Shown: positions 8,824-44,982, numbered from the stretch's first letter. The stretch: DNA of 64,000 nt from Gammaproteobacteria bacterium (GCA_965205405.1 OZ242169.1:2480091-2544090); one strand, 5' to 3'. Program-made: numbers and translations. The notes: a model not told the origin generated them from the sequence alone.

Positions 8824-9003
8824 CCGGACGATGATCTTATCTCCTGACCTGTCAGATCCAACCCCGCTCTTAAAAAGTGGATTACCTTTGAGGGGCAGAT
8901 CAAATGTCTTGGCCATCTTTATCACCTATAATAATAATCGCCTATTTGAGCTGTTGGGTTTTAGCACAGTAAGCGTGAATAATCCCACCGGATAGAGCCA
9001 GAA

Positions 9004-10494
9004 ATGAGCATGCGACCACACCAGTTAATGTGGAAACAATTGATACAGCTGGACGCATCTGCTCAGGAAAGTCTGCAGATGCAATTGAGAAGAGGACTGA
9101 CCAACGCTATTCTCTATGGTCAGGTCAGTATTGATTTACCGCTACCCTCCAGCCGTGATCTGGCGCAGCAATTGCAAATATCCCGAAATACCATTGTTCT
9201 TGCGTATCAACGACTGGTGGATGAGGGCTATCTCATCAGTCGAGAAAGACAGGGCTATTTTGTTAACCCGGCAATCCTCGAATCCAGACCGCAGTACCAG
9301 GAGAACGAAGACACAGTAGGCTCAAGTACACCGGAATGGCAGGCCAGATTAAACTTCGACCTCTCAATACAACGTAATATACAAAAACCGAGTCATTGGC
9401 AAAAATTTGAATACCCTTTTGTCTATGGCCAATCCGACCCTTCATTGTTCCCTATCGCCGATTGGCGCGAGTGTGTGCGTCAATCACAAAGTGTCGCGGT
9501 GATAACCGCAGGCAGTTTTGACTATATTGATCAGGATGATGAGGTATTGGTAGAGGAATTGTGCATTCGAGTCCTGCCGCGGCGAGGCATTTGGATCAGG
9601 CCGGAACAATTACTGGTTACCATTGGCGCGCAGAACGCCCTGTCGATAATCTCGCAATTACTCTTTAACGAAGACTCTGTTATCGGCATTGAAAACCCTG
9701 GATATCCTGACGCCCGCAATTTATTTTCATTACGCACCAAGCAATTGGTGTTACTTGAAGTTGATGAGTATGGCTTGATCATTAACGACAAACTCAATCA
9801 ATGTGATTATGTGTACGTCACCCCTAGTCACCAGTCCCCTACCACAACCACTCTCCCCGTGGGAAGACGTAAGGAATTGCTGGATAAAGCCAGACTGCAC
9901 GACTTCATTATCATAGAAGATGATTATGAATCCGAAGCTAACTATATCCATCAGGCAATCCCGGCTTTGAAGAGTTCGGACACCAATAATCGAGTGATTT
10001 ATTGTGGTAGTTTATCGAAATCGCTCGCTCCTGGTCTCCGTCTCGGTTATCTGGTTGCCGATGTTGAACTGCTCACGCAAGCACGCATATTACGGCGCTT
10101 ATTATTACGCCATCCCCCTGCCCTAATTCAGAGAACAGTCGCATTGTTCCTTCAACTCGGTCATTACGACTCACATATCAATCGGTTTAACCAGGTGCTG
10201 AAAAACCGTTGGAAGATAATGGCCGAGGCACTTGAGCAATACATGCCCGGTTCGACCAACATTCCGGAATTTGGTGGCACAGCCTTCTGGATACAGGGAA
10301 CGGAGGGAAGTAACTCTCGCCAGCTCACAGAAGAGTGCGCCAAGCAGAGTATCCTCATAGAGCCGGGAGATGTCCATTTCGGACAGGATAATCCTCCCAA
10401 TAACTTTTTTCGATTAGGCTTCTCCTCCATAAGTGAAGATCGGATCCAAAAGGGTATCGCACATATCAAGGACATCCTTAATAGTCTAATTTAG
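9004..10494 (+). CDS. MocR-subfamily GntR regulator (N-terminal wHTH plus C-terminal PLP aminotransferase-like domain); candidate TauR-like regulator of the adjacent taurine module
   Basis: 496 aa. N-terminal GntR HTH (SSRDLAQQLQISRNTIVLAYQRLVDEGYLISRERQGYFV). C-terminal class-I aminotransferase fold with an SLSK PLP-lysine motif (YCGSLSKSLAPGLRLGY). Confidence 0.8.
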   Translation: MSMRPHQLMWKQLIQLDASAQESLQMQLRRGLTNAILYGQVSIDLPLPSSRDLAQQLQISRNTIVLAYQRLVDEGYLISRERQGYFVNPAILESRPQYQENEDTVGSSTPEWQARLNFDLSIQRNIQKPSHWQKFEYPFVYGQSDPSLFPIADWRECVRQSQSVAVITAGSFDYIDQDDEVLVEELCIRVLPRRGIWIRPEQLLVTIGAQNALSIISQLLFNEDSVIGIENPGYPDARNLFSLRTKQLVLLEVDEYGLIINDKLNQCDYVYVTPSHQSPTTTTLPVGRRKELLDKARLHDFIIIEDDYESEANYIHQAIPALKSSDTNNRVIYCGSLSKSLAPGLRLGYLVADVELLTQARILRRLLLRHPPALIQRTVALFLQLGHYDSHINRFNQVLKNRWKIMAEALEQYMPGSTNIPEFGGTAFWIQGTEGSNSRQLTEECAKQSILIEPGDVHFGQDNPPNNFFRLGFSSISEDRIQKGIAHIKDILNSLI

Positions 10495-10613
10495 GTAATC
10501 AATAGCTGTGTAGTCGAATAGATATTCAGAAACTCCAGTTAACTCCTCCCCCACTTCACCAATCACGCTGTTATGGTTCCAAAGGTAACTCCATGGTTGC
10601 GTAGATAACGTCG

Positions 10614-11693
10614 CTAAAATGAATTTTCTTTCACATAATCATCAAGGTTCTGCAGATATTTATGTCTATCCTCTTCCGAAATCCAGGCTGATTCAAATGC
10701 ATTACTAATAAGCTGGACGACTTCATCTATTGAATAGTCACCGTGTCGCTGTACTTCCGATAGCGTATTATTTAGATAGCGACTGGCGAACTCCGACGGA
10801 TCGTCTGTGTTCACTGAAACCAGTAGGTTCAAATCAAGCATCTCACGAATACCCTCAACTCGACGAGGTCCTGGATCTGAGGGCCTCCAGGTTGGGCACA
10901 TAGTCAGTGGTATCCGGTTATCCTGGACCGCTGAAATTAATTTCTGATCATCCAGTACTTGCAACCCGTGATCAATTCGTTCTACTTTCAGGATGTCTAG
11001 ACATTGGCGAATGTGATTTATGGAATTAGGTTGATCACAATCACAATGTGATGTCAAATGATAGCCTTCCTCTCGCGCTCGCTTGAATACTTTTTCAAAC
11101 TTTAGTGGGAAGTCGTGTACTTCATAGTTATCCAGACCGACAGCGTTTATTTCAGGCTTAAAGGGTTTAGCAATATCCAGTATTTCCATACTTGATTCTG
11201 CACTATGATCACGCTGAAAATTCATTATCCAATTGGATTCTATTCCGAAATCTCGCTTACCGTCTTGCCTTCCACGATTGAGACCAGTAAAAAAATTCCT
11301 AAATTCAACGCCACGACTGGTATGTGCTTGCGTATCAAACATCATTTCTACGTAAACAATATTTTCTTTTCGGCATTTTTCAAGAAAAGCATAGGTGAGT
11401 TCATAGAAATCTTGTTCTTTCTGCAATACACGTATGCAATTTTCGTGATATTTTAAGAAATTATCTAATGGCGGCTCCCCATAATCTTGAGCTGCCCATA
11501 CTTCTTTTTCATTCTGAAAAGGAATATCAATTTTATTACGTTCTGCAAACTCCAGTAGCATAGAGGGTTCTACACATCCTTCAATATGAACATGTAATTC
11601 CGCCTTTGGCATACTCGCAATAAATTCAGCAAAGTTTTTTATCATGTTTATCTTTTCCAATACCACTTCATTTCCGTGACAGATTGTGAGCAC
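10614..11693 (-). CDS. Adenosine/adenine-deaminase-family metal-dependent aminohydrolase (true start possibly the internal Met at 11645)
   Basis: HVHIEG metal-binding motif near the N-terminus (KAELHVHIEGCVEP) and an SVNTDDP motif near the C-terminus, as in adenosine deaminases. It overlaps the pta stop codon. Confidence 0.7.
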   Translation of the reverse strand: MLTICHGNEVVLEKINMIKNFAEFIASMPKAELHVHIEGCVEPSMLLEFAERNKIDIPFQNEKEVWAAQDYGEPPLDNFLKYHENCIRVLQKEQDFYELTYAFLEKCRKENIVYVEMMFDTQAHTSRGVEFRNFFTGLNRGRQDGKRDFGIESNWIMNFQRDHSAESSMEILDIAKPFKPEINAVGLDNYEVHDFPLKFEKVFKRAREEGYHLTSHCDCDQPNSINHIRQCLDILKVERIDHGLQVLDDQKLISAVQDNRIPLTMCPTWRPSDPGPRRVEGIREMLDLNLLVSVNTDDPSEFASRYLNNTLSEVQRHGDYSIDEVVQLISNAFESAWISEEDRHKYLQNLDDYVKENSF

Positions 11694-12646
11694 TAAGCCA
11701 GAAAGGCCGTGATAACAGCTATATCAAGAATGTCTTTAGCCGTACACCCTCTGGACAAGCCCATCCAGGGTTTCGCCAAGCCCTGTAATAATGGTCCGAG
11801 GGCCGTTGCACCGCCGATCCTTTCTGTTATTTTATATGCGATATTGCCGGAAGATAGATCTGGGAAAATAAATACATTTGCCTTACCTGCAACCGCCGAT
11901 TCTTCCAATTTCAACTTCGCAACTTCTGGATCAAATGCAGCGTCAAACTGAAGTTCGCCATCAATATGTAAGGCAGGTCGTCGTTGCCTGGCTATATCCA
12001 GGGCTTTTCTCACTTTAACCACATGAGCATGTTCAGTACTGCCCTTAGTAGAAAAAGACAATAAGGCAACTCGTGCCTCTTCCCCCGTAAGCACTAAATG
12101 GTTTTCGGCACTATCAATGGCAATGCAAGCCAACTGCTCGGCATCGGGATTTGGTACTACCCCGCAATCTGCGTAGGTCATAACACGATCCTTTAGTTCC
12201 ATTAGAAACATACTGGAAAGTAAATTTTTCCCGTCCGCCAGGCCTATTCCTCGAAGACCAGCCCGGACCACGTCGGCTGTAGTAGCAACCGAACCGGCAA
12301 CGCCTCCATCTGCATAACCAATATTTACCAATACGGCGGCAAGTAATAATGGATTACTGTTCAATTCAAGTGCCGCTTGCTCGACTTTAATACCTTTCGT
12401 GGCTTGTAGTTGAGAATACACATCTATACAACGTACATACCAATCATCTCTATCAGTGCGATGCTCAAATACTTCAATATCATGCATTTTCACTCGCCCT
12501 TGCCTGATAAATAATGCAGTACCGTAATTACCCCTATTGAACTCCAGGGCTGCATGCATGACGCGAGGATCTTCCGATTCTGGAAAAATAATACGCTTAG
12601 GTGCTTGCCTGGCTATTTTCCGGATAAACTCAAGTACCTGTGCCAT
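11693..12646 (-). CDS. pta: Phosphate acetyltransferase (short PTA_PTB-type)
   Basis: 317 aa. PTA/PTB family pattern (RIIFPESEDPRVMHAALE ... GYADGGVAGSVATTADVVRAGL). Confidence 0.75.
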   Translation of the reverse strand: MAQVLEFIRKIARQAPKRIIFPESEDPRVMHAALEFNRGNYGTALFIRQGRVKMHDIEVFEHRTDRDDWYVRCIDVYSQLQATKGIKVEQAALELNSNPLLLAAVLVNIGYADGGVAGSVATTADVVRAGLRGIGLADGKNLLSSMFLMELKDRVMTYADCGVVPNPDAEQLACIAIDSAENHLVLTGEEARVALLSFSTKGSTEHAHVVKVRKALDIARQRRPALHIDGELQFDAAFDPEVAKLKLEESAVAGKANVFIFPDLSSGNIAYKITERIGGATALGPLLQGLAKPWMGLSRGCTAKDILDIAVITAFLA

Positions 12647-12692
12647 ACATACCCTAGCCCCGTACTAAATGTTGGCCCATACGTTCTCGTTG

Positions 12693-14123
12693 TCAAGAAT
12701 AACTATCCAATACCTCTCGGAATATTTCACGCATGTCATTGATTTCCGATTTCTCAATAACAAAGGGTGGCGCTACTAATGCCGCATCTCCCGTCGTTTT
12801 GACATGCACGCCAGCATCAAACAGTCTCTTTTGAAAGTTGTGACCACGCCTTCCAGGAGTACCATCAACTGCAACATCGAATGCGGCCAACATGCCATAT
12901 CCTCGAATATCCGTCACCATCGGATGGTCTTGTAGAGAGAAAATTGCATCCAGAAAATAATCAGATAAATCTTTGGCTCTCTGAAAAAGATTTTCCTTTT
13001 CAAAAATATCCAGCGTTGCAAGCCCGGCAGCACAGGCTGCAGGATGACCTGAATACGTATATCCATGAAACATCTCAACAACATTTTCAGAGCAACTATT
13101 GATAACAGTATCATAGATATTGTCATGTACTGCCACACCAGACATTGGCTGGGCAGCATTGGTCATTGCTTTTGCCATGGTAATAATATCGGGAGTGACA
13201 CCAAATTCTTGTGATGCAAATGCAGAGCCGGTTCGACCGAAACCGGTAATTACCTCATCGAAAACTAATATAATATCGTGTTCGTCACAGATTTCACGTA
13301 AGCGCTGCAAATATCCTTCTGGTGGAACGATCACACCCGTCGAACCAGCAATCGGCTCAACGAAACAAGCAGAGATTCGATTCGCACCATACAATTGAAC
13401 AGCGCGTAACAGATCATTAGCCAACTCTTCTCCACCTTCCTTGGGTTGACCCTTAATGAACTTCTGATCAGGTGATAATGTGCTTCGCATATGTGTCACG
13501 TTTGGTAATACGCCAGTGAAGGCCTCCCTGTTTTTGGCAATACCGCTCAGCGCTGTACCACCTATATTGACACCGTGATAAGCACGTTCGCGCGAAACAA
13601 ATATATTTCTCTGTGCCTCTCCTCTGGCAAAGTTATACGCCATGACAATTTTCATTGCTGTATCAACAGCTTCTGATCCAGAATTTCCATAGAAAATATG
13701 GTTAAGTGGATTCGGAGTTAATGCAGCAATACGCTTGGCCAACTCAAATGACTTTGGCTGTCCCCGTAAAAAGGGTGCCGTAAAATCCAACTGCCGGAGT
13801 TGTTCATGTACTGCAGCCGTAATTTCAGGACGGCAATGGCCACATGCGACGGCAAACAAACCTGAAGATCCATCAATCAGCCTTTCACCTTTATTGTTCC
13901 AAAGATATATTCCCTCAGCCCCGGTAATTATCCTGGGATCCTGCTTGAAGGATTTGTTATCAGTAAAGGGCATCCAGTGATTTTCCAGATCGGTACTGGA
14001 TATATCGATTGGTTGTACCTGGCCATTATTTTCTGGCATATTGAGCAGGATGTCTGCGACTGTATTAACCATTTTCTTCACCTGTATAAGCTGTTCAAAA
14101 TAATCAATAATGCTATTTGCCAT
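12693..14123 (-). CDS. Class-III (omega) aminotransferase, candidate taurine-pyruvate aminotransferase (Tpa-like)
   Basis: About 476 aa from MANSIIDYF. Class-III fold pattern (HWMPF..., GHCRPEITAAV, PLP-Lys region DEVITGFGRTG). Sits between pta and the Xsc-like gene. Confidence 0.75.
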   Translation of the reverse strand: MANSIIDYFEQLIQVKKMVNTVADILLNMPENNGQVQPIDISSTDLENHWMPFTDNKSFKQDPRIITGAEGIYLWNNKGERLIDGSSGLFAVACGHCRPEITAAVHEQLRQLDFTAPFLRGQPKSFELAKRIAALTPNPLNHIFYGNSGSEAVDTAMKIVMAYNFARGEAQRNIFVSRERAYHGVNIGGTALSGIAKNREAFTGVLPNVTHMRSTLSPDQKFIKGQPKEGGEELANDLLRAVQLYGANRISACFVEPIAGSTGVIVPPEGYLQRLREICDEHDIILVFDEVITGFGRTGSAFASQEFGVTPDIITMAKAMTNAAQPMSGVAVHDNIYDTVINSCSENVVEMFHGYTYSGHPAACAAGLATLDIFEKENLFQRAKDLSDYFLDAIFSLQDHPMVTDIRGYGMLAAFDVAVDGTPGRRGHNFQKRLFDAGVHVKTTGDAALVAPPFVIEKSEINDMREIFREVLDSYS

Positions 14124-14165
14124 CAGTATGTTACGTATGTATTTGACACTCACATAGAGCCAGAA

Positions 14166-14316
14166 ATGAGTAAGCGATCGCACCAGCTGATGTGGGAGCA
14201 GTATCTCGAGAAATACGATAGTACTTACTTATCAATGGTTTGTTGATGAAGGTTATCTGGTTAGTAGAGAGAGACAAGGCTACTTTGTTAGACCGACAAT
14301 ATTAAAGACTCGCCCG
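14166..14316 (+). pseudogene. Decayed fragment of a second MocR/TauR-like regulator gene, divergent from the aminotransferase
   Basis: DNA similarity to the intact gene at 9004. The segment 14152-14225 matches 8990-9063, including the shared upstream AGAGCCAGAAATGAG and MS.R.HQLMW. The segment 14238-14316 matches about 9205-9290 (VDEGYLISRERQGYFV region). The intervening ~150 bp is deleted and the frame is broken. Confidence 0.5.
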
Positions 14317-14524
14317 CTACTATATACCGGAATTCCTTAATTACTGGCTCTGAATACACTTCGAAACTGGCTCTATTTTCAAGTGCAATCCTTCTCTAAA
14401 GTTACCGACTTGTTAATATGAATATGCAAATGATTCGATTGGAATGAATAGTGCCCAGAATACACAGTTAGCGTTCTCGCTTGTATTCTGAACACATTCC
14501 CCTACCTTTCAGGAGTTAAAGATT

Positions 14525-16279
14525 ATGACACGAATGACGCCCAGTGAAGCGTTTGTAGAAACCATGGTTGCCAATGGGGTAACCAAAATTTTTGGAATCA
14601 TGGGATCGGCCTTTATGGATGCTATGGATATCTTTGAGCCTGCCGGGATTGATTTTGTGCCCGTTGTACATGAACAAGGGGCTGCCCACATGGCTGATGG
14701 CTATTCCCGTGTCAGTGGCAAACATGGCGTGTGTATCGGCCAGAACGGACCCGGGATAAGTAACTGTGTCACGGCCATCGCAGCCGCCTATTGGGCTCAT
14801 TCACCGGTGGTTATAATCACCCCTGAAACCGGTACCATGGGGATTGGCCTGGGAGGGTTCCAGGAAGCCAACCAGTTACCCATGTTTCAAGAGTTCACCA
14901 AGTACCAGGGACATGTCTGCAATCCTAATCGTATGGCGGAAATTACCGGCCGATGCTTTGAGCGAGCCCTGTCGGAGTTGGGCCCTACTCAGTTGAACAT
15001 ACCACGTGATTATTTCTACGGTGATATCGATGTGGAAATCCCCCAACCCCGGACTCTGGATAGGGGACCAGGGGGTGAAAAAAGTCTGAATGACGCTGCA
15101 GAATTACTGGCAAAAGCGAAATTCCCCGTCATCATTTCCGGCGGTGGCGTGGTTATGGCTGATGCTGTTCAAGAGTGTAAAGCCCTGGCTGAGCGCCTGG
15201 GTGCACCGGTGGTAAATAGCTATTTACATAACGACTCCTTCCCCGCCGGTCATCCGCTTTGGTGTGGCCCCCTGGGTTATCAGGGCTCCAAAGCCGGTAT
15301 GAAACTCATCAGTAGAGCCGACGTGGTATTGGCGCTTGGTACACGGCTTGGTCCATTTGGTACTCTGGCCCAGTATGGGATGGATTATTGGCCAGAGGAC
15401 GCCAGGATCATCCAGGTCGATGCCGATCATAAAATGCTCGGCCTGGTAAAAGAAATTTCAGTGGGGATCTGTGGTGACGCAAAAGCCGCAGTAATCGCCA
15501 TACACTCTCGTCTGAATGATGGCTCTCTGGCTTGTGATGCGAATAAGGAACAACGTGCAACTGAGATAAGTCAGGAGAAACAGGCGTGGGAAAAAGAACT
15601 TGATGAATGGATTCATGAGAAGGACGACTTCAGCCTCAAAATGATTGAAGAAGCCGTAGGTAAATTGCTCCATCCTCGCCAGGTATTACGAGAACTGGAA
15701 ACAGCCATGCCTGCAGATGTTATGGTATCGACCGATATCGGTAACATTTGTTCTGTATCCAATAGCTATTTACGATTTGAACGGCCACGCAGTATGTTTG
15801 CAGCCATGAGTTTCGGTAACTGCGGTTATGCATTTCCGACCATTATTGGTGCTAAATTGGCTGCCATGGATCGTCCGGCTGTCTCATATGTAGGCGATGG
15901 TGCCTGGGGTATGAGTATGGGCGAAACTATGACCTGCGTACGTGAAGGTATTCCTGTTACGTCGGTCGTCTTCCACAATAAACAATGGGGGGCGGAGAAG
16001 AAAAACCAGGTGGATTTTTACGGCCGCCGTTTTGTGGCCGGCGAACTGGACAATCAGAGTTTTGCTGAAATTGGACGGGCCATGGGTGCGGAAGGTGTCG
16101 TTGTTGACAAGTTGGAAGATGTCGGTCCTGCCTTCACCAATGCAATCAATTTACAGATGAATGATGGTATAACAACAGTACTTGAAATCATGTGTACCCG
16201 CGAACTGGGTGACCCCTTCCGCCGTGATGCATTGTCAACACCGGTACGTTATCTTGAAAAATACAAAGATTATGTTTAG
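14525..16279 (+). CDS. xsc: ThDP-dependent enzyme of the acetolactate-synthase superfamily; best fit is sulfoacetaldehyde acetyltransferase (Xsc)
   Basis: 584 aa. The N-terminus (MTRMTPSEAFVETMVANGVTKIFGIMGSAFMDAMD ... IGQNGPGISN ... GGFQE ... NIPRD) matches my recollection of Xsc. Pta and a class-III aminotransferase are adjacent, as in known xsc-pta/tpa loci. Confidence 0.65.
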   Translation: MTRMTPSEAFVETMVANGVTKIFGIMGSAFMDAMDIFEPAGIDFVPVVHEQGAAHMADGYSRVSGKHGVCIGQNGPGISNCVTAIAAAYWAHSPVVIITPETGTMGIGLGGFQEANQLPMFQEFTKYQGHVCNPNRMAEITGRCFERALSELGPTQLNIPRDYFYGDIDVEIPQPRTLDRGPGGEKSLNDAAELLAKAKFPVIISGGGVVMADAVQECKALAERLGAPVVNSYLHNDSFPAGHPLWCGPLGYQGSKAGMKLISRADVVLALGTRLGPFGTLAQYGMDYWPEDARIIQVDADHKMLGLVKEISVGICGDAKAAVIAIHSRLNDGSLACDANKEQRATEISQEKQAWEKELDEWIHEKDDFSLKMIEEAVGKLLHPRQVLRELETAMPADVMVSTDIGNICSVSNSYLRFERPRSMFAAMSFGNCGYAFPTIIGAKLAAMDRPAVSYVGDGAWGMSMGETMTCVREGIPVTSVVFHNKQWGAEKKNQVDFYGRRFVAGELDNQSFAEIGRAMGAEGVVVDKLEDVGPAFTNAINLQMNDGITTVLEIMCTRELGDPFRRDALSTPVRYLEKYKDYV

Positions 16280-17307
16280 GCTCCCAGGCCCAATTTACCC
16301 AGTGCCTTTTTATAAGCCACACTACAAACATCCGCATGGGTGTGCCGCTCATTTCTTATATTCAGAAGATATTCCTTTGGGTGAAGCTTCTCAATAATGG
16401 CTTTATCTTCTTTATTGACTTGCAACATGTAATCAATGTCGGCACGCGGGTCGTTATGCTGTGTGACGGCAATCTGAAAAAGCGTACATGAATAAGCAGA
16501 ATTGGGGGTTGCAACGTCATGCACTGAATATCTAACGCTACCATCCTGCTCCTCATCAATCAGTAATGAGCAAAAAGGTAATGTCAGTTCGGATATTAGA
16601 GTGAAATCTCTGGCAACTCCATGTACTGCTGAATGGGTTGTTTTAACACGCCTGAGCACATGGGCCACCGTTTGGTCGACTTCAAACTCCGGGACAGAGG
16701 AGGCTTCCGGATTTCCAAACGATTCTCTATGGACAATTGAAAGATGTGCAGGATCGTTAAAATTCTCCACATGTCTCGCAGCTGATGCTTCCCAGACCTC
16801 TGAATTAATACTCACTTTGGTATCCGGGTGATTCATAATTCCTTCGTTTTCAAGAATCGGCCATTCTGGTAGAGGCAAAATTGGATCAGGCTTCAGGCAA
16901 ACCCAGAGTAAACCGAAACGCTCCTCACTCCGGTATGTGATAAGGTTGAAACTACTGGCGATAGGCGCCGTCTGATCTTGCCGTGCAGGAATTTTGCTAC
17001 AGGTCCCATCTGCTTCAAATTCCAGCCCATGATAAGGGCAGACAATTTTGTTTTCTTCCACACATCCCATGCTGAGCGGCGCCCCTCGATGGGGACAAAT
17101 ATCCCGAGCCACGGTAATTCCTTTTCTGGTACGATAAATTACCAGTGGGATATCCATTAATATAAAGCGAACCGGTTTGTCTTTAATATCATCAATTAAG
17201 GCCACAGGATGACACATTGCTGCCAGAATTAGCCAGTCACTTCTTGTAAACTCAGTTTGATCGGGAAAGTCCGAATCATCTTTAACAAAATTTTTCGGTA
17301 GAAACAT
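16276..17307 (-). CDS. Rieske [2Fe-2S] non-heme-iron oxygenase alpha subunit, short VanA/TsaM-like type (paralog 1)
   Basis: 343 aa. Rieske motif CPHRGAPLS...CPYHG. No beta subunit or reductase gene adjacent. Confidence 0.75.
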   Translation of the reverse strand: MFLPKNFVKDDSDFPDQTEFTRSDWLILAAMCHPVALIDDIKDKPVRFILMDIPLVIYRTRKGITVARDICPHRGAPLSMGCVEENKIVCPYHGLEFEADGTCSKIPARQDQTAPIASSFNLITYRSEERFGLLWVCLKPDPILPLPEWPILENEGIMNHPDTKVSINSEVWEASAARHVENFNDPAHLSIVHRESFGNPEASSVPEFEVDQTVAHVLRRVKTTHSAVHGVARDFTLISELTLPFCSLLIDEEQDGSVRYSVHDVATPNSAYSCTLFQIAVTQHNDPRADIDYMLQVNKEDKAIIEKLHPKEYLLNIRNERHTHADVCSVAYKKALGKLGLGA

Positions 17308-17337
17308 AACTTAATTCCTTAAATTCTATAAGCAAAT

Positions 17338-18663
17338 CTACGAATGCCTGATTTCTACTATCATATTCGCAAAAGGTTTTAGTCCTGAATAAAAAATTAC
17401 GATGGCAATGGGTATAAATATCGCACCAAACAAGGACAAAGAGTAATGAACCTGAAGTGTGTTTTGAAACACAGTATCAGTAAAAAAAGCTACCAGGAAT
17501 GGGCCCACACCCGCCCCGATCAGTACCAAAATAAAAAGATAAATCGCCAGTATCTGCCCACGAAATTCATTGGGTGTAATCTGAGTGATACATGCCATAC
17601 CAACACCAATATTGGCTCCCAAAAAAAACATTGTCGGACCCAGTAAACACAATACAGTTATAGAATTTGGTGCCAGTGGGGTCACAATAAAAATCAGTAA
17701 TCCAAGACAAGCATAGACGGACACCCTTAGATATGCATCAGCAAAACCTCTTTTTATAAGCCAATCTGCCCATATACCGCCACACATTGTGCCGCCGCCA
17801 CCAAAGAATAAAACAACCAGACCAAATGCTATTCCTACCTCTCCAGGTGTCCAGGAAAAAATACGAATAAATAGTGTCGGGGTCCAGGCTAATAGACCAT
17901 ATCCCAACATCGCGGTAGTCGAATAACCAAAAATGATGGTTAAGTAAACTCGCAGGTGTGATGCCATAAAACGAAAGGTTTCTCTCAATGGTAATAATAT
18001 TGGAGCACCTTCTCCTTTATTTAGCCTATCGTGTCGCAAAGGTTCTTTGACAGACAGCATTACCAGGGCGGCAACCAATACGCCGGGCAAACCAACGATT
18101 ATTAAAGTCGTTTGCCAGGGTTGCAGTACACCTACAAGAGGTAATTCCAGCGCCGTGCTTTTGGCAACGGCCTGTACAACAAGACCACCCAGGATAAAAG
18201 ATAGTCCCCCTCCGACGTATGGACCCATCGCCAGAAGGCTGATAGGTTTACTGCGTTTATCCCGTGGAAAATAGTCAGACACCATTGAATACCCACAAGG
18301 TGACAAGCAAGCCTCACCTACCCCCACGCCAATACGGGCCAGGAAAAACATCCAGAAATTTTTTGCAAGACCGCAACAGGCCGTCATCAGACTCCAGGCC
18401 GTAATACCTATTGCAATAATGGTGCGGCGATTTTTGGAATCAGCCAGGCGTCCAATCGGAATTCCCATAAACGCATAGAAAATAGCAAAGGCAAAGCCGT
18501 GTAAAATACTTATTTGTGTATCCGTAATACTGAGGTCTGCTTTTATGGGTTCTATGAGTAAACTAATAATCTGCCGGTCAATAAACGAGACAACATTGGC
18601 AACCATTAAGACAGCGGCAACATACCAGGCGTATATCGGATTTGGGTAGTTATCGTTCGCCAT
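17338..18663 (-). CDS. MFS transporter
   Basis: About 441 aa from the internal Met (MANDNYPN...), 12 predicted TM segments, MFS-type G-rich loop motifs. Confidence 0.75.
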   Translation of the reverse strand: MANDNYPNPIYAWYVAAVLMVANVVSFIDRQIISLLIEPIKADLSITDTQISILHGFAFAIFYAFMGIPIGRLADSKNRRTIIAIGITAWSLMTACCGLAKNFWMFFLARIGVGVGEACLSPCGYSMVSDYFPRDKRSKPISLLAMGPYVGGGLSFILGGLVVQAVAKSTALELPLVGVLQPWQTTLIIVGLPGVLVAALVMLSVKEPLRHDRLNKGEGAPILLPLRETFRFMASHLRVYLTIIFGYSTTAMLGYGLLAWTPTLFIRIFSWTPGEVGIAFGLVVLFFGGGGTMCGGIWADWLIKRGFADAYLRVSVYACLGLLIFIVTPLAPNSITVLCLLGPTMFFLGANIGVGMACITQITPNEFRGQILAIYLFILVLIGAGVGPFLVAFFTDTVFQNTLQVHYSLSLFGAIFIPIAIVIFYSGLKPFANMIVEIRHS

Positions 18664-18794
18664 ATTTGAGACAGTTGCCAATTCGTTCACAATAAACTGC
18701 GGAAAAAATAATAATGTTAGACCTGGATAAAACGCATAATAGAAAAAAAGGGTGGACAATCCACCCTATTTATCACTTAGTCGAATGCATACAA

Positions 18795-21074
18795 TCAGAA
18801 TCGATAGGAAAGCGTACCCCCAAATTGACGCGGAGGCCCACCAGGCAGCACCATATGTTCGGCAATAAATGTAAATCCGTCATTTATCCATTCTTCATCT
18901 GCAAGATTCTTAACCCATAGTCTTACATCCCAGTTATCGTCAGAACCAGTGTAACCAATGCTTGCATTGAGTATCCAAAAAGCATCTTGTGATTCGTAAT
19001 CCGTATTTGTATCAGTAAAAAATTGTTTATCTCTCCAGTGCGGATTGAGTGTAAATGCCAGTTGACCACCCTGTGCCATCGGTACTGTATAGGTTATAAA
19101 AGTATTTGATGTCAGTGCCGGCGTTTTCGCGGTCGTATTACCTGTGACATCACCACCCCCAAACCCAAGAGCTAAACTGGTACTTACAAATTCAGATTCT
19201 GTCCAGGCGAGTGCTGAATAGATATTCAACTGTTCCATTGGTTGCCAATCGACCTCAACTTCAGCGCCATATCCCTCGACATCGCCAAAGTTGGCCAATA
19301 ACGATATACTACCCAGAACGCCACGAGCACCAGGAATCTCAACGAATCCGATTTTGTCTGTATAATCGTAGTAGTATCCTGACGCATTCACGCGCAAGGT
19401 GTCATCCAGAAAATCACCTTTAAAACCAGCTTCGAAATTACTCAAGAATTCAGGGTCGGTAACTTCAAATTCGTCGTTAGCCAACGCACCGCCGTTGAAA
19501 TCTCCACCCCTGAAGCTTCGAGACCACGTAAACCACAGATTTACATCATCATTCAAAGCGTATTGAAGTGAAATTCTGGCACTGGGTTCAAACCACTCTT
19601 CTTTTTGATTATCTTCGTTTGCCAAAATCGTGTGTGGCAAACTAAACCACAGTTGTTTATCAATTAACGTATTATCGAACGTGGGGTTGGGGACGATGCT
19701 ACCGGCACGTATCGCACCTACTCGTTCATCCCACGTTAACCTCAGGCCCGCCGTCGCCGTAAAACGATCGTTAAAGTCATATGAAACTTCGCCGAAAATT
19801 GCAAAATTTTGTTGCTCTATAATATTCAGTCGTCCTGCACTCGTACCACCAAATGCGAGGATGTAGTTAGAACGAAAGTATGTGAGTTCATCGTCATAAT
19901 AAAAGCCGCCCAGGACCCAGTTCCATGGCCCATCACTGTTGGATGCAAATCTAATTTCCGTACTCCATTGTTCATGTTCGTCGTCAAAGTTCGCATTTAA
20001 TACTCCTTGTGGAGAGCCATCAGTTTCATTCAGTTCTTGGCGGACATTAGACTGGAAGGCGGTAATAATCGTAGTTGTAAAGCTATCAAATTCGTAATCC
20101 ACGAATAACGCGGTTTGAAACAATTCCATTTTCTGAAACCCATCGGCACCAGAATTAATTGTATAGGGATCAGCATCAGCCACACCACCTAACAGGTTCA
20201 CACAGCTCGTACCCGGGCGCCCCCTCAACGGATCAGAACATGAAAATCCGAAATCAAATGGGAATGCGCCAAGACCCAGCGCCTTTTGTGGAGTATCTTC
20301 TCCATCAAGTTCACTGTATGTAATTGCTAATCTGGTGTTTAAACGGTCGGTTGGCTGCCAGGATATCTGCCCCCTTAGGGCGCCCCACTCGTGGCCACCA
20401 AGATTACTATCAGCAGGCGATGCAGGATTACCATTATCATACAAGCCGTCGAAGCTGCGATAGGTAGCGCTTAGTCGTGCAGCAATGTTTTCACTGATCG
20501 AGAAACCCACTGCACCTTCAAAATCATACTCATCTCCTTCGGCCGCCGTAACATCTACGTAACCATTGGTTTCCCCGCCTATCTCGGGTTTAACCGACAC
20601 GTAGTTAATCAGACCGCCTGTAGTATTTCTTCCCCACAATGTTCCTTGTGGGCCTTTCAGCACTTCAACCCGGTCCAAGTCGAATACCAATCCAGCAGTA
20701 CCGTAATTAGAACCAAAAACGACACCATCTTGATAAATCGCCGTCGCGTTTCCGGCGCTGACCTGGAAATCATCAACACCTACACCACGCAAACTATATT
20801 CTGTCTTGCCGAAACCGGTACCTGCAGTGGTTAAACCAGGTATCGAATCCAAGAGTTCTCTGCCATTCGCAATCGCACGCTTTTTGATGGTATCACCAGT
20901 AATCGCTGTCACAGCAATAGGCACCTCTTGAAGACTTTGCTCTCGCTTTTGCGCTGTTACGATAACTTCTTCTAACACTCCCTGCGCAGAAGCCAGTCCC
21001 GTCCAAAGCATCAAGATACCAAGTACGCCGAATAAGCTAATAATTTCTTTGAATCTGATCAAAATGAACTGCAT
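18795..21074 (-). CDS. TonB-dependent receptor
   Basis: Start at the ATG at 21074 preceded by GGGGAG. Signal peptide, plug (EEVIVTAQKREQSLQEVPIAV), C-terminal ...TLSYRF barrel terminus. Confidence 0.85.
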   Translation of the reverse strand: MQFILIRFKEIISLFGVLGILMLWTGLASAQGVLEEVIVTAQKREQSLQEVPIAVTAITGDTIKKRAIANGRELLDSIPGLTTAGTGFGKTEYSLRGVGVDDFQVSAGNATAIYQDGVVFGSNYGTAGLVFDLDRVEVLKGPQGTLWGRNTTGGLINYVSVKPEIGGETNGYVDVTAAEGDEYDFEGAVGFSISENIAARLSATYRSFDGLYDNGNPASPADSNLGGHEWGALRGQISWQPTDRLNTRLAITYSELDGEDTPQKALGLGAFPFDFGFSCSDPLRGRPGTSCVNLLGGVADADPYTINSGADGFQKMELFQTALFVDYEFDSFTTTIITAFQSNVRQELNETDGSPQGVLNANFDDEHEQWSTEIRFASNSDGPWNWVLGGFYYDDELTYFRSNYILAFGGTSAGRLNIIEQQNFAIFGEVSYDFNDRFTATAGLRLTWDERVGAIRAGSIVPNPTFDNTLIDKQLWFSLPHTILANEDNQKEEWFEPSARISLQYALNDDVNLWFTWSRSFRGGDFNGGALANDEFEVTDPEFLSNFEAGFKGDFLDDTLRVNASGYYYDYTDKIGFVEIPGARGVLGSISLLANFGDVEGYGAEVEVDWQPMEQLNIYSALAWTESEFVSTSLALGFGGGDVTGNTTAKTPALTSNTFITYTVPMAQGGQLAFTLNPHWRDKQFFTDTNTDYESQDAFWILNASIGYTGSDDNWDVRLWVKNLADEEWINDGFTFIAEHMVLPGGPPRQFGGTLSYRF

Positions 21075-21316
21075 CTTTGTCTCCCCTCTTGGCTTGGCAA
21101 TAACTAGTTTTGAGATCGTTGCAACCTCACAACGTACAATTTTTCGAACCATAAAATATAATGCAGCTAAAGCCATCTAAGTAGTACCAAACAACCTTTA
21201 ACCTTAGTACCACGAATTATTTCCCACATTTTTAGTGGATGCCTCTCTGTTTCAGGTCAAAAACTAAGCTATAAGGCGTTGATATTAATAGTAATAATTT
21301 ATCAGTTCATCCTAAT

Positions 21317-22399
21317 TTATGCGACCTGCTTGTTCGCTGGATCTTTTATATCTTTCCTTATGCATTTAAGTAACTCTTCAGGACTTTTTTCTGCCGCCGC
21401 TGCCAGCTGCCTTAACCATTTACGATAGTGGATCGATATTTTATCCGACGGCACGGAGATCTCTTGAGATGGGCCTGGGATTTCCTGGGGATACTGGCTT
21501 TCGATAACAGGTTTGTCCTCGGCCAGAACTATCTCCTGGAATGCCAAATGCGGTGGATCCGGTTTGTCCATATCATGGTCTCGACAGGTAAATGAAAAAA
21601 TACGGCATGTTTTGGCATCGATTGGTGCTGCACACATCCACAGGATCGCATTGTTCCCCTTTCCCGCTTTGGTATTCAGTAAAAATTCAACGTTGACCGT
21701 AAACGGCATGGTGATGTGATAAACAGTCTTTCCCATTAAGGCAACATCCGGTACAGGCATTTCTTCCGGTGCCTCAAAGTGAAAAACCAGTTGTCCGTTT
21801 ACCCTGTCAATATAGGGCGGTGTTACATCCGTTATGTTGGGGTCAAACAAGGTATTAGGATGAATATAGGGAAAATGCGCCAGGTCAACATAATTTTCCA
21901 GTCGTCTAGCTGCCGATGTCTGCCAGTTGTAAGGAACTATTGGGACTGCTTTGAATTTCTCGTCGGTATATCCGGGACACAGAGGGATCTGGGTCTCTGT
22001 ACTTGAATCTAATCGTACCCATATCAAATCATATTTTACTTGTGTTTCATACTGAGGGATTTTAGCCACGGTTGGGATTTCCATGCCTGGGCATGCCGGT
22101 ATATCCACACATCGACCTTGACCATTGTAGGCCCAACCATGATACCGGCATCGCATTTTCCCATTATCGACAAATCCCAGTGCGAGCGAGGCCGAACGAT
22201 GACAACACCTTTCACTCAGCGCAACAATGCCCTCATCCAGTTCGACTATCACCAGGGATTCACCAAGAAGCTTCACTTTAATCGGACCTTTACCACTCGC
22301 ATCTTCGGAGTAAAATTCTTCCAGGGTACAAACTGGAAACCAAAAGTGTCGCCAGGTTGCCTCGCTGATGAAATCTGGATTTATGGTTTGATTACTCAA
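21317..22399 (-). CDS. Rieske [2Fe-2S] non-heme-iron oxygenase alpha subunit (paralog 2, more divergent)
   Basis: 360 aa. Rieske motif CCHRSASLA...CRYHGW. Confidence 0.75.
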   Translation of the reverse strand: MSNQTINPDFISEATWRHFWFPVCTLEEFYSEDASGKGPIKVKLLGESLVIVELDEGIVALSERCCHRSASLALGFVDNGKMRCRYHGWAYNGQGRCVDIPACPGMEIPTVAKIPQYETQVKYDLIWVRLDSSTETQIPLCPGYTDEKFKAVPIVPYNWQTSAARRLENYVDLAHFPYIHPNTLFDPNITDVTPPYIDRVNGQLVFHFEAPEEMPVPDVALMGKTVYHITMPFTVNVEFLLNTKAGKGNNAILWMCAAPIDAKTCRIFSFTCRDHDMDKPDPPHLAFQEIVLAEDKPVIESQYPQEIPGPSQEISVPSDKISIHYRKWLRQLAAAAEKSPEELLKCIRKDIKDPANKQVA

Positions 22400-22660
22400 A
22401 ATAGTTTCTCCTTAAAGATGTTCGAATTTGTCACTCACTAGATGTAGATCCAATTCATGAGAACCGTTATACCCAATATTCATAAGAAAATATTCATTAT
22501 TTCAGTTGCTTACGAGGGAGACGTAAATGATGATATTCCGCTCCTTCAAAGACAGTTGTACAGTGCATCAATGTGGCGCCTGCATTCGGACTAAAATTAA
22601 TATAGTATTTTTCTTAAACTTGATTAATAAATCCTTTTCTATTACCAAATTGGAACAATT

Positions 22661-23716
22661 ATGTTTTTACCCAGTGATCACTCCAAAAACATATCAACGC
22701 TACCTCGTAATTGTAGCTTGAATGAAAACGATTGGAATATCCTTGCCGGCCTCTGGCATCCGGTAGTCTTCTCTAAAGACATCGGTCATAAACCTGTCGC
22801 GGCCAAACTGCTCGATGTTCCTCTGGTAGTCTACCGCACCACCGCAGGCATCACAGTTGCCAAGGATCTTTGCGTCCACCGTGGTACCCCCATCAGCTTG
22901 GGCTGGATGAAGGATGATATGATCGTCTGCCCCATGCATGCCCTGCACTATGATGGCGAGGGAAGATGCCGACGTATCCCTTCGGTTGAAGATAAAAACC
23001 GCCCTATCTCAGATCGCTTGCAGCTCATTACCTTCCGAACAATAGAACGTTACGGAATTGTCTGGGTTTGTCTGAGTAATGACGAACCTGCAATTCCCCT
23101 TCCCGAATGGCCTGAGCTGGAAGACGAGCGATTCATGACTGATGTTAACATCAAGAAGATGAGCATCGACGAAATATGGAACTGTTCAGCTTCCCGGCAC
23201 ACTGAAAACTTTAATGACGCAGCCCATTTATCCTGGGTCCATGCTGATTCGTTTGGCAACCGGGATAAGCCGGAAGTGCACGACATCGAAGTCGATATGA
23301 CTGTGCCACATGTATTAAAGCGTGACCGCCGCCTGATGGAAGAGTCCCTGGGACAGGGGCGCTTATCACACTTTATCGCGGAATTGACCCTGCCATTCTC
23401 TTCCGCCCTCGTGGAGAAAGATGGCGATCAAAATCTAGCCTATGGCATATATGATGCCGCCTGTCCAATGTCTGCAAACGAAACCCGCGTATTTCAAATC
23501 ATCTGGTCGGGATTCCCCGATAGCTACCCGCACTCCCATGTACAATTATGGGAGCAAGTGAACCGGGAGGATATCGTTCTGGTATCACGCCAATGTCCGG
23601 AAGAGGTGCCACTCGACGTGCGGGAAGAGATTCACATTCCTGCTGACACTGTTTCATTAGCTTATAGAAAAGCCATGAAAGATCTGGGCCTGGGGGCTCC
23701 ACAGTTTACGCAATAG
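22661..23716 (+). CDS. Rieske [2Fe-2S] non-heme-iron oxygenase alpha subunit (paralog 3, clearly related to the 16276-17307 protein)
   Basis: 351 aa. Rieske motif CVHRGTPIS...CPMHA. Colinear similarity to paralog 1 (LPLPEWP, ENFND.AHLS.VH). Confidence 0.75.
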   Translation: MFLPSDHSKNISTLPRNCSLNENDWNILAGLWHPVVFSKDIGHKPVAAKLLDVPLVVYRTTAGITVAKDLCVHRGTPISLGWMKDDMIVCPMHALHYDGEGRCRRIPSVEDKNRPISDRLQLITFRTIERYGIVWVCLSNDEPAIPLPEWPELEDERFMTDVNIKKMSIDEIWNCSASRHTENFNDAAHLSWVHADSFGNRDKPEVHDIEVDMTVPHVLKRDRRLMEESLGQGRLSHFIAELTLPFSSALVEKDGDQNLAYGIYDAACPMSANETRVFQIIWSGFPDSYPHSHVQLWEQVNREDIVLVSRQCPEEVPLDVREEIHIPADTVSLAYRKAMKDLGLGAPQFTQ

Positions 23717-23748
23717 CAGTAGACTTGTTCGTTATTGAGTGGTTTAAC

Positions 23749-24915
23749 TTACCACGATTCTGTTGCCTTAGATCCTTCAATGGCGGCCAGCTGTTTTACT
23801 ACAATAATTATGATGAACGCAGTAAGCAGTTCGCCGGCAAAGGTAAAACCACCCAGGGCCATGGTATTCCAGTTATCCATAATCAAACCACCTAGCGCCG
23901 GCGCAACAGCAATGGCGCCCAGAAAAGATGTGGAGGCGATGGATGCCCAACGACCTTCCTGATCCAGGCGCGCCGCGGTACCGAGCAGATACGCTACGGT
24001 AAAGAAATAACTGATGTTGTTTAACAAAACGGAGATGGTATAGACAAAGGGATCAGGCACCGTACAAATCAAAAACCAAGTGCCGCCATTGACCAATACG
24101 CCGATCACCACGGGAACAATTCTGCCAAAACGCAGATTCAGCCAGGCAGCCAGCAATCCACCCAACATGCCGAAGATGAAACCTGCTCCCAATATCCCAC
24201 TGACTTGCTCAACTGCTAAACCGGCGGTTTCACCCATAATAGCCAAGTAAGCCCAGGGCGCGCTGACAACCATTATCCAATTTAAAATGGCAAATATGGT
24301 CAAGCAACCTAAAATAAAATGAGGTAATCGTATCTTCTTATTATCCGCTTGCTTTTCTTTCACCGTGTTGGGGAAACAACATAGTAGCGGCAAAGTACAT
24401 AAGGTTAATAAGGCCAGCACGCCGTAACCGCCGCCAACACCGTAACCTTTTACGGCATAGCCTGCCAGCCAAACCATGATTGCCATGATCATGGCATTGA
24501 ATGTTTTTACCAGGGCAAACATGCGATCGGGAGCCGCAGCGCCGGCGATCACCGCGCCCCCTGCGGCTAGCGCGGCGCCTGCAAACAAGCCGGCAAAAAA
24601 GCGAACAAATAACAACACCGCGTACGACGGACCCTGGGAACTGATGATATGTGCCATCACCGCCAGCAGACAGCCTACAACAGCAATCCTGCGTTTGGGG
24701 AGTTTGTCTATGAAAGGAGCGACGATCAGCGCAGTCAACGCGATACCGGCAAATTCCACCGAGACCAGATAACCGGCTTTGCTTGCCACCAGGGCCATAT
24801 GGTTTTTTAAGGCCTGTACAATAATTGGGGCCAGAGCCTGTGACAAATTGCCCACAAGAAAAGCACCCCATCCACTGAGAAAGATTAACCTGTTTCGGCG
24901 ATCAAGATTAAACAA
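23749..24915 (-). CDS. MFS transporter
   Basis: 388 aa, about 12 TM segments, Gly/Ala-rich helices. Confidence 0.7.
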   Translation of the reverse strand: MFNLDRRNRLIFLSGWGAFLVGNLSQALAPIIVQALKNHMALVASKAGYLVSVEFAGIALTALIVAPFIDKLPKRRIAVVGCLLAVMAHIISSQGPSYAVLLFVRFFAGLFAGAALAAGGAVIAGAAAPDRMFALVKTFNAMIMAIMVWLAGYAVKGYGVGGGYGVLALLTLCTLPLLCCFPNTVKEKQADNKKIRLPHFILGCLTIFAILNWIMVVSAPWAYLAIMGETAGLAVEQVSGILGAGFIFGMLGGLLAAWLNLRFGRIVPVVIGVLVNGGTWFLICTVPDPFVYTISVLLNNISYFFTVAYLLGTAARLDQEGRWASIASTSFLGAIAVAPALGGLIMDNWNTMALGGFTFAGELLTAFIIIIVVKQLAAIEGSKATESW

Positions 24916-30897: not shown

Positions 30898-31047
30898 GGT
30901 ATAAGGATAGCTTACAACCTGTATCCGTGTCAATCCAATGATTGTATCATGTAACTGACACGTAAAGCTCGCCGATACTGGGATCGCGGTACACCGGCAC
31001 TTATGAATACCTTGCAAATCAGGAATTAAAATCCTAAAATACAAGGT

Positions 31048-35981: not shown

Positions 35982-35991
35982 GGAGCACGCT

Positions 35992-36762: not shown

Positions 36763-36797
36763 CGGCCGAGGTCATTGGGGCCGTAGCTTTTAGTTTT
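36763..36797. terminator. Weak candidate terminator between convergent pxpA-like and TonB-dependent receptor genes
   Basis: CGGCC-(11 nt)-GGCCG followed by TAGCTTTTAGTTTTA. Confidence 0.25.
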
Positions 36798-36883
36798 AGG
36801 GTCGGACCTGTATCATCCCGTATAACCCATTGATTATATTATGTATAAATACTAAAACAGGGCTAAATATGAGCTTAAAAAGG

Positions 36884-43130: not shown

Positions 43131-43310
43131 CGTCATGCTTTTCGTCCGGCGCCGATTCCCCCGGGACCGATGTCTGTTTCGCCTTGCCCCCGGAGGTTTA
43201 TATACCTACTGATTCAGGTAGTCTTTTCTTAAAATAGAAACTCACCCCCTACTCAAGAAACTTCCAAACTACTTTTTGCAGTAATTCAACAGGGGTCGTT
43301 CATCCCGTAT

Positions 43311-43330
43311 CCTTTTATCTAGATAAAAGG
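43311..43330. promoter_or_regulatory. Perfect 20-bp palindrome CCTTTTATCTAGATAAAAGG about 70 bp upstream of the hydantoinase-like gene; candidate operator
   Basis: Exact dyad symmetry seen in the sequence, in the LuxR-regulator / hydantoinase-like intergenic region. Confidence 0.45.
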
Positions 43331-44964: not shown

Positions 44965-44982
44965 ACACTTAGGAGATGTGAA

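Follow-up and report, generated by a model that had tools for sequence, protein, structure and literature searches.

We analysed a 64,000-nucleotide stretch of DNA from a Gammaproteobacteria bacterium (GCA_965205405.1, OZ242169.1:2480091-2544090), hereafter the window, around a gene cluster that an earlier note had described as a five-gene module for the dissimilation of taurine or another C2-sulfonate at 9004-16279. The five claimed open reading frames (ORFs) are present at 9004-10494 (+), 10614-11693 (-), 11693-12646 (-), 12693-14183 (-) and 14525-16279 (+), and Pfam assigns to them, in this order, GntR plus aminotransferase I/II domains, A_deaminase (E 9e-63), PTA_PTB (E 6e-98), a class-III aminotransferase (E 6e-90) and the three domains (N, M and C) of a thiamine diphosphate (ThDP) enzyme. 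As the whole of the module the interval is too short. The conserved block reaches to about 24915, and the island that forms the functional unit, 9004-24915, measures about 16 kb; besides the five core genes it holds three Rieske/VanA_C oxygenases, two MFS transporter genes and one TonB-dependent receptor. Within it a true sulfoacetaldehyde acetyltransferase, Xsc, stands together with an adenine-deaminase-family hydrolase of altered yet conserved active site and with oxygenases resembling caffeine demethylases, and we tentatively propose that the island degrades a purine-type compound that carries taurine. The features, by position and strand, are as follows.

8994..9001, plus strand: AGAGCCAG half-site immediately ahead of the MocR start codon, a candidate autoregulatory operator
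9004..10494, plus strand: MocR-family regulator, GntR helix-turn-helix with aminotransferase fold (Pfam GntR and Aminotran_1_2; NCBIfam PdxR)
10614..11645, minus strand: type A adenine-deaminase-family hydrolase, HCDCDQ / CPTWRPSDPGPRR variant (Pfam A_deaminase), proposed to release taurine from a purine-type conjugate
11693..12646, minus strand: Pta, phosphate acetyltransferase, short form with PTA_PTB only (Pfam PTA_PTB, E 6e-98)
12693..14072, minus strand: class-III omega-aminotransferase of the beta-alanine/AptA type, putative taurine:pyruvate aminotransferase (Pfam Aminotran_3, NCBIfam AptA)
14156..14374: divergent aminotransferase/xsc control region with exact AGAGCCAG octamers at 14156-14163 on the plus strand and at 14344-14351 and 14367-14374 on the minus strand
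14525..16279, plus strand: Xsc, sulfoacetaldehyde acetyltransferase (TIGR03457 and NF005713)
16276..17307, minus strand: Rieske/VanA_C oxygenase 1, SxtT/SxtDIOX- and NdmA/B-like (Pfam and PDB matches)
17338..18759, minus strand: MFS transporter 1 (MFS1), anion:cation-symporter-like (Pfam MFS_1), start codon uncertain (relatives have 444-456 residues)
18795..21176, minus strand: TonB-dependent outer-membrane receptor (plug and beta-barrel domains)
21317..22399, minus strand: Rieske/VanA_C oxygenase 2, closely related to NdmA/NdmB, the methylxanthine N-demethylases (PDB 6icp, 6icl)
22661..23716, plus strand: Rieske/VanA_C oxygenase 3 (45% identical to oxygenase 1)
23749..24915, minus strand: MFS transporter 2 (MFS2; Pfam MFS_1)

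The island is flanked by lipB/lipA on one side and by xseA-guaB-guaA on the other, and its GC content of 0.43-0.47 compares with 0.50-0.56 in the flanks. Relatives carry the same block in different flanking contexts, so that the island behaves as transferable, and the low GC content together with the differing flanks suggests lateral transfer. Scans for sigma-70 promoters and terminators gave hits at chance level and were uninformative.

The route from amino-sulfonate to acetyl-CoA

The ThDP enzyme at 14525-16279 scored 1027.8 bits against the Xsc equivalog model TIGR03457 (cut-off 676.4) and 1009.8 bits against NF005713, and by these profiles its membership in Xsc is certain and unambiguous. 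The best acetolactate synthase model reached 310.7 bits, under its cut-off of 538, and that identity was rejected. The comparison of the two families had been named beforehand as the test that could refute a sulfonate function; with the Xsc model far ahead, the sulfonate reading stands and the "Xsc-like" enzyme of the earlier note is a true Xsc. Relatives were compared in the six loci that hold the closest homologs of the island hydrolase (66-71% identity), L082-L086 and L180, which represent five distinct arrangements, L083 and L084 counting as one. Xsc orthologs in all these xsc-linked loci are 87-89% identical to that of the window.

The phosphate acetyltransferase falls just under the profile cut-offs (309.5 against 310 bits for the NCBIfam phosphotransacetylase model, 301 against 311 for TIGR00651). 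A gene of this type accompanies xsc here and in all but one of the six related loci, or four of the five distinct arrangements, L082 being without it. The copies in the relatives are only about 40% identical to the window pta and are placed elsewhere, downstream, often adjoining a citrate synthase gene; because the pairing recurs with such divergent and differently placed copies, it is probably under selection. The citrate synthase gene stands before or after pta (11095-17590 in L083 and L085, 11010-13134 in L180), and L083 and L085 also carry AhpC/thioredoxin-like, MauE, CoA-transferase and Fe-alcohol-dehydrogenase genes near pta. These neighbours may handle acetyl-CoA and the sulfite or redox products.

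The aminotransferase most likely starts at the ATG at 14072 and not at 14183, giving 459 residues, since the gene call on the source contig agrees and the relatives have 458-461 residues. It had been called Tpa-like. In sequence it is of the beta-alanine/AptA type, passing the NCBIfam AptA model with 576 bits (cut-off 500), and it is set apart from Tpa by model score and by the names of its homologs: the nearest specifically named ones (62-66% identity) are beta-alanine--pyruvate transaminases and none is named Tpa. Homologs of 74-81% identity form the clade of the xsc-linked loci and the next ones reach at most 66%. The gene is linked to xsc and a MocR gene in the window, L082-L086 and L180, with the exception that L086 has no MocR. 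Taurine is the sulfonate analogue of beta-alanine, and a taurine role for the enzyme is plausible from its genomic context. With Xsc unambiguous and Pta recurring with xsc, the core route that had been claimed, from amino-sulfonate over sulfoacetaldehyde and acetyl phosphate to acetyl-CoA, is supported.

The island thus resembles the taurine dissimilation systems of Cook and co-workers (Tpa-Xsc-Pta under TauR, in Rhodobacter, Ruegeria and Paracoccus) in its true Xsc, its Pta, its pyruvate-type omega-aminotransferase and its MocR regulator with direct-repeat operator-like sites. It differs from them in the beta-alanine/AptA type of the aminotransferase, which is not the annotated Tpa type, in lacking TauABC, TauKLM and TauE, with uptake apparently left to a TonB-dependent receptor and an anion-symporter-type MFS protein, and in having three Rieske oxygenases and an adenine-deaminase-family hydrolase as integral parts.

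A 56% homolog of the aminotransferase was also seen in Novosphingobium pentaromativorans plasmid pLA3 (L092, 565279-590559), where it sits with a divergent MocR gene, an amino-acid permease, a TonB-dependent receptor, an amidohydrolase, a TauE/SafE exporter and an aldehyde dehydrogenase. This cluster may be another system combining a conjugate hydrolase with aminosulfonate breakdown.

The regulator and the operator-like repeats

The regulator has the features of the MocR type: a GntR helix-turn-helix fused to an aminotransferase fold, a position adjoining its putative target genes, and direct-repeat operator-like sites. The label "TauR-like" finds no support, the single NCBIfam cut-off passed being that of PdxR (358.8 bits against 320) in a model set that had no TauR model. 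Orthologs of 77-78% identity are found in L082, L083, L085 and L180, where, unlike in the window, they lie between xsc and the aminotransferase gene.

The octamer AGAGCCAG has four exact copies in the window, all within the control DNA of this cluster. With a spacing of 23 nt, the copies at 14344-14351 and 14367-14374 make up a direct repeat. In L082, L083 and L085 the MocR start is adjoined by a box, GCCAGAA, which in L180 reads GTACCAGAA. Upstream of xsc the element GAAAATAG[AGT]GCCAGTTAT-N14-AAG[AT][GT]CCAGAA is kept in L082, L083 and L085, while its second half-site is degenerate in L180.

A variant hydrolase of the adenine deaminase family

The hydrolase gene most likely starts at the ATG at 11645 (MIKNFAEF...), since homologs begin 8-17 residues ahead of the PKAELH motif and this start fits them; the GTG at 11693, which overlaps the pta stop codon (TAGTG), is merely the first possible start. 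The translational coupling to pta that had been claimed is not supported, as the ATG leaves a gap of 47 nt after the pta stop. Co-transcription of the two genes is plausible.

The best solved relatives are the adenine deaminases Pa0148 (3ou8, 225 bits) and AAur1117 (3rys, 199 bits), at 32-36% identity. An AlphaFold (AF2) model of the hydrolase has a mean confidence (pLDDT) of 95.1, and Foldseek superposes it on 3ou8 and 3rys with template modelling (TM) scores of 0.83-0.92. The metal ligands of the ADA family (H18, H20, H200 and D281), the catalytic His226 and the Asp-Asp are shared with these enzymes. In alignment with 3ou8, HCDCDQPNS stands in the place of the catalytic HAGEEGPP and CPTWRPSDPGPRR in that of CPLSN, the change from HAGE to HCD coming with a two-residue insertion, so that the position of the HxxE glutamate, the catalytic residue of the family, is held by Cys or Asp. 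Where Pa0148 and AAur1117 carry HAGE and CPLSN, the island enzyme thus has HCD and CPTWRPSDPxPRR, and it lies in an uptake and catabolic operon, not in one for purine salvage. Among the curated models TIGR01430 is passed (281.9 bits, cut-off 216.6), and the closest one, NF006850, gives 309.5 bits against a cut-off of 419.

The altered site is itself conserved. All of the 120 best database homologs (43-74% identity) carry HCD[CV]DQ and CPTWRPSDPxPRR or close variants, and in an alignment of 31 sequences H18, H20, H200, C201, D202, D225, H226 and D281 are invariant and the three arginines of the new loop, R254, R261 and R262, nearly so. A decayed deaminase or pseudogene was rejected on the grounds of this conservation and of the confident structure model. 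Three classes were distinguished among 80 genomic relatives: canonical enzymes with H-AGEEGP and CPLSN, type B with HCD[VIL][DN]Q and CPxSN, and type A, with HCDCDQ and the new loop. A neighbour-joining tree, built without support values, places type A as a single clade inside the HCD-type enzymes and the xsc-linked hydrolases as one clade nested among Rieske-linked sisters. To judge from these sequences, type A appears to be a large subfamily under selection that is currently labelled adenosine/adenine deaminase.

Two observations concern the family at large. Type B (L003-L014, L016, L019, L022, L037, L072, L075 and L077) is very widespread, occurring in marine Gammaproteobacteria, Nocardia and other actinobacteria and lactobacilli, and is annotated as adenine or adenosine deaminase despite the absent HxxE glutamate. 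Type A genes often adjoin a second ADA-family paralog of about 355 residues with a canonical HAGE (HVHFTGA...TAHAGEFGEP), as at 5877-6944 in L091 and in 14 metagenome loci; this paralog may resemble 4gxw, an uncharacterised protein of cog1816.

Precedent within the ADA family for the release of an amine instead of ammonia from N6-substituted purines is given by the cytokinin deaminase Patl2390 (cog1816 group 3) and by N6-methyl-AMP deaminase (MAPDA/ADAL). Patl2390 is reported to hydrolyse N6-substituted purines to an oxopurine and the free amine (PMC13296781), and it is likened to the island hydrolase by this chemistry. MAPDA is only about 20% identical to the island hydrolase and its substrates are nucleotides; no match named for strain T6c, the source of Patl2390, appeared in a search seeded with a type B protein. 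The earlier note had considered an aminohydrolase acting on an N-substituted sulfonate ahead of transamination. That idea survives, sharpened to the release of taurine from the amidine carbon of a purine-type compound, whereas a simple N-acyl or amidated sulfonate is not supported: the enzyme is of the adenine deaminase family and travels with caffeine-demethylase-like oxygenases, not with amidases.

Oxygenases and transporters

Oxygenase 2 matches NdmA and NdmB with 309 bits (PDB 6icp) and 306 bits (6icl) over about 325 aligned residues, roughly half of them identical to NdmA by eye, and combines the Rieske domain with the VanA_C-type catalytic domain of these enzymes. For oxygenases 1 and 3 the scores are 80-112 bits, with little to choose between NdmA/B and the saxitoxin hydroxylases SxtT/SxtDIOX. 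The gene for oxygenase 1 runs convergently to xsc, the two overlapping by 4 nt. Its orthologs are 68-70% identical in L082-L086 and 60% in L183, and a remnant of 44 residues is left in L180. Orthologs of oxygenase 3 are found in L086 (83%), where an MFS gene also adjoins, and directly after the type A hydrolase genes of L184 and L185 (72-80%); an ortholog of oxygenase 2 (58%) adjoins the type A gene of L181.

The earlier note had found no transporter. This holds for the TauABC, TauKLM and TauE families, and fails for the locus as a whole, because MFS1, the TonB-dependent receptor and MFS2 lie just outside the interval it considered. The best NCBIfam match of MFS1 is TIGR00893 (anion:cation symporter), below the cut-off; its orthologs are 72-78% identical in every related locus, and in L183 the ortholog (72%) shares its strand with the hydrolase gene and immediately precedes it. 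Orthologs of the receptor are 74-78% identical in L083-L086, with distant receptors (39-44%) at the same position in L082, L180 and L183. Wherever a related locus reaches far enough, it includes MFS1 and a receptor gene.

Three Rieske oxygenases beside a taurine route could also mean that N-methylated taurines (mono-, di- and trimethyltaurine) are the substrates, demethylated stepwise to taurine, with the deaminase-family gene a passenger. Methylated taurines are present in marine algae and invertebrates, three oxygenases would suit three methyl groups, and every gene but the hydrolase gains a role. We hold this to be improbable, as a score of 309 bits ties oxygenase 2 to the purine-specific NdmA, matches to the known quaternary-amine Rieske demethylases are weak (E 4.5e-6 for the GbcA model on oxygenase 1), and the conserved hydrolase, the gene most tightly bound to these oxygenases across loci, is left unexplained.

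The equal match of oxygenases 1 and 3 to the guanidinium hydroxylases SxtT/SxtDIOX, and the presence of O-demethylases among VanA-type enzymes, would suit a different taurine conjugate whose C-N bond is amidine-like or of the enaminone kind, such as taurocyamine (guanidinoethanesulfonate) or mycosporine-taurine, both of them documented marine metabolites. The type A enzyme would then cut this bond while a Rieske enzyme O-demethylates or hydroxylates the rest. Such a substrate appears most improbable, since the hydrolase is nearest to adenine deaminases by sequence and by fold, its neighbours elsewhere are purine-type genes, and no precedent was found for its family acting on non-heterocyclic guanidines.

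Gene neighbourhoods in relatives

The six closest loci keep MFS1 (76-78%), Xsc, MocR (absent from L086), the aminotransferase, the hydrolase and the receptor, as well as Pta except in L082. The hydrolase gene always follows the aminotransferase gene in the xsc-linked loci, with a gap of 7 nt in L083. Around this pair the order changes: pta and MocR move, oxygenase 1 is lost in L180, and L082 has extra genes, one for a CDA-fold deaminase and one for a further MFS1-like transporter (54% identity to MFS1). In L085 a sulfite-oxidase-like molybdoenzyme adjoins the receptor.

The position of oxygenase 1 invites the thought that a Rieske enzyme hydroxylates the carbon beside the nitrogen of an N-(2-sulfoethyl) heterocycle, delivering sulfoacetaldehyde straight to Xsc, while the type A enzyme deaminates an exposed amino group and the aminotransferase serves for free taurine only. 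Its ortholog adjoins xsc in all relatives but one, and Ndm-type enzymes remove N-methyl groups by the same chemistry (PMC4408171). In L180, however, oxygenase 1 is decayed while xsc, the aminotransferase and the hydrolase persist, and the pairing of aminotransferase and hydrolase, the most constant feature of all, is not needed by such oxidative N-dealkylation, which we consider to have little chance of being correct.

Outside the xsc-linked clade xsc is gone from view and the oxygenases are retained, the closest relatives of the hydrolase being always accompanied by Ndm/Sxt-like Rieske genes. L183 (hydrolase 66%) holds the oxygenase 1 ortholog, an AraC regulator, a receptor, the MFS1 ortholog, the hydrolase and then an 8-oxoguanine-deaminase-like gene (132.7 bits over 101 residues). 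In L181 (60%) and L182 (56%) the companions of the hydrolase are a VanA_C protein lacking the Rieske domain, a Rieske protein encoded separately and a GST-like protein, and the oxygenase 2 ortholog is full-length in L181 and a fragment at the contig end in L182. This arrangement matches the NdmC/NdmD/NdmE layout as described (PMC4408171), the likeness to NdmC and NdmE being one of architecture and PDB similarity only, as NCBIfam has no Ndm-specific models. In L184 and L185 (57%) oxygenase 3 orthologs follow the hydrolase gene, and throughout L181-L185 AraC or LysR regulators take the place of MocR. More distant type A members (41-54%) have varied ABC importers, TetR regulators, a canonical ADA paralog, BMP-type binding proteins, PNP and XdhC as neighbours, and no xsc.

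Wider scans gave the same picture. A scan of genome contigs with the family alignment, dominated by canonical adenine deaminases, found the HCD motif in 13 of 81 loci including the window contig, and xsc in none beyond that contig. A metagenome scan for the type A loop returned about 45 type A loci without a new xsc linkage, so the link to xsc appears to be clade-specific. A plasmid collection held one confirmed type A gene (Phaeobacter), with xsc not nearby.

Compared with the caffeine system NdmABCDE of Pseudomonas putida CBB5, oxygenase 2 of the island and the split NdmC-like subunit, separate Rieske protein and GST-like protein of the sister loci are alike. The window differs in lacking, among its annotated ORFs, an NdmD-type reductase and in joining its oxygenases to a deaminase-family hydrolase and a sulfonate pathway. 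Caffeine itself is an unlikely substrate of the island because it has no exocyclic amine.

These distributions also bear on the main rival explanation, that two independent modules share one island: a free-taurine route (MocR, aminotransferase, Xsc and Pta, with entry through an MFS protein) and a module for methylated amino-oxopurines, with the receptor, an MFS protein, three Rieske demethylases or hydroxylases and the type A enzyme as an ammonia-releasing deaminase. The set of receptor, MFS, Rieske and hydrolase genes recurs without visible xsc under AraC or LysR and not MocR (L181-L185), the majority of type A members elsewhere lack sulfonate genes in their neighbourhood, and in the island the operator repeats are limited to the promoters of MocR, the aminotransferase and xsc. 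Against this, the hydrolase gene lies within the aminotransferase operon in every xsc-linked locus and the two supposed modules have stayed together through several rearrangements; a recognised taurine transporter is absent, and a TonB-dependent receptor would be unexpected for free taurine. On balance we regard two independent modules as unlikely.

A proposed taurine-carrying purine-type substrate

The explanation we favour, with a probability of about 0.4, is that the island degrades an imported, anionic, N-alkylated purine-type compound bearing a 2-sulfoethylamino (taurine) group, which the hydrolase frees. The compound would enter through the TonB-dependent receptor and the anion-symporter-type MFS protein. 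The type A enzyme would direct a metal-activated water to the amidine carbon, as adenine deaminase does, and expel taurine in place of ammonia, leaving an oxopurine. The Ndm/Sxt-like oxygenases would, before or after this step, remove N-methyl groups from the heterocycle or hydroxylate it. Taurine would be converted to sulfoacetaldehyde by the omega-aminotransferase, sulfoacetaldehyde to acetyl phosphate and sulfite by Xsc, and acetyl phosphate to acetyl-CoA by Pta. The MocR regulator, possibly with taurine as effector, would act on the AGAGCCAG repeats to activate its own gene, the aminotransferase-pta-hydrolase operon and xsc. A single compound is the simplest model that gives each conserved gene a role.

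This explanation is favoured by the persistence of the aminotransferase and Xsc with the hydrolase in five of five further arrangements despite rearrangement (MocR missing from L086, Pta from L082). An anionic substrate fits, because MFS1 is nearest to anion:cation symporters and its L183 ortholog (72%) is directly upstream of the hydrolase gene. A purine theme runs through the 309-bit match of oxygenase 2 to NdmA, the Ndm-like layout of L181 and L182, the 8-oxoguanine-deaminase-like gene of L183 and the CDA-fold deaminase of L082, and, among wider relatives, through the BMP-type binding proteins, PNP, XdhC and the second ADA paralog adjoining type A genes.

Several points weigh on the other side. 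To our knowledge no taurine-substituted purine is a common or abundant natural compound; the one example, the sponge compound microxine, presumably has a sulfoethyl side-chain, and the literature found describes it only as an 8-oxoadenine derivative. The arginine-rich loop cannot be sulfonate-specific, since type A members without nearby xsc share it, and the HCD motif occurs also in the very common type B enzymes, which are possibly ordinary adenine deaminases. Conservation is partly shared ancestry, because the xsc-linked loci form one narrow clade (Xsc 87-89%), and the xsc-less sister loci are short contigs of 3-9 kb, past whose ends xsc could lie. In the window no operator repeat was found ahead of the receptor gene or of the oxygenase genes. 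The window's annotated ORFs, four of which have no family, include neither a Rieske reductase (FNR- or ferredoxin-type; NdmD-type) nor a sulfite exporter or oxidase.

Other genes of the window

Beyond the island, guaA (GMP synthase) appears at 27962-29535 to be split into two overlapping ORFs in different frames (27962-28981 and 28951-29535), by a frameshift from assembly error or as a pseudogene, and is adjoined by two neighbouring divergent AAA_14 plus DUF4143 ATPase genes (29716-32217). At 32723-39799 biotin carboxylase, CT_C_D, CT_A_B and LamB/YcsF genes, a set like that of 5-oxoprolinase and allophanate hydrolase, are followed by a TonB-dependent receptor of 971 residues. A second heterocycle-utilisation cluster at 40380-50806 comprises a MalT/LuxR-type regulator, hydantoinase A, a TonB-dependent receptor, an NCS1 nucleobase permease, a DUF917/S-Me-THD-like protein and a GSDH-like protein. 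Subunits of the xanthine-dehydrogenase/CO-dehydrogenase family are encoded in two sets, at 51197-54839 and 60742-62101, and near them lie several ORFs without a Pfam family, at 54854-55936, 57765-58613, 59219-60544 and 62791-63552.

Significance

Organosulfonates are a major sulfur and carbon currency in aquatic systems, and the entry points to the Xsc pathway known to us are few: taurine, isethionate, sulfoacetate and breakdown products of sulfoquinovose. The pathway itself is already known; the literature searched gave no description of its union with uptake through a TonB-dependent receptor, with Ndm-like oxygenases and with an uncharacterised subfamily of adenine deaminases. Nothing relevant came up on xsc in combination with adenine or adenosine deaminase, on sulfoacetaldehyde in combination with Rieske and TonB, on cog1816 or on 8-oxoadenine deaminase. 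The conserved island joining Xsc, a purine-type hydrolase, caffeine-demethylase-like oxygenases and TonB uptake points to an additional sulfonated substrate. That aquatic Gammaproteobacteria catabolise unrecognised natural sulfonates in the form of taurine-substituted, N-methylated (oxo)purines, and that enzymes of the HCD / CPTWRPSDPxPRR subfamily are amine-releasing purine hydrolases and not deaminases, here feeding taurine to Xsc, is a broader and more doubtful proposition. A direct test is feasible, as candidate substrates can be synthesised and the enzyme should express easily. The island also gives a large, misannotated subfamily of "adenosine/adenine deaminases" its first testable functional context.

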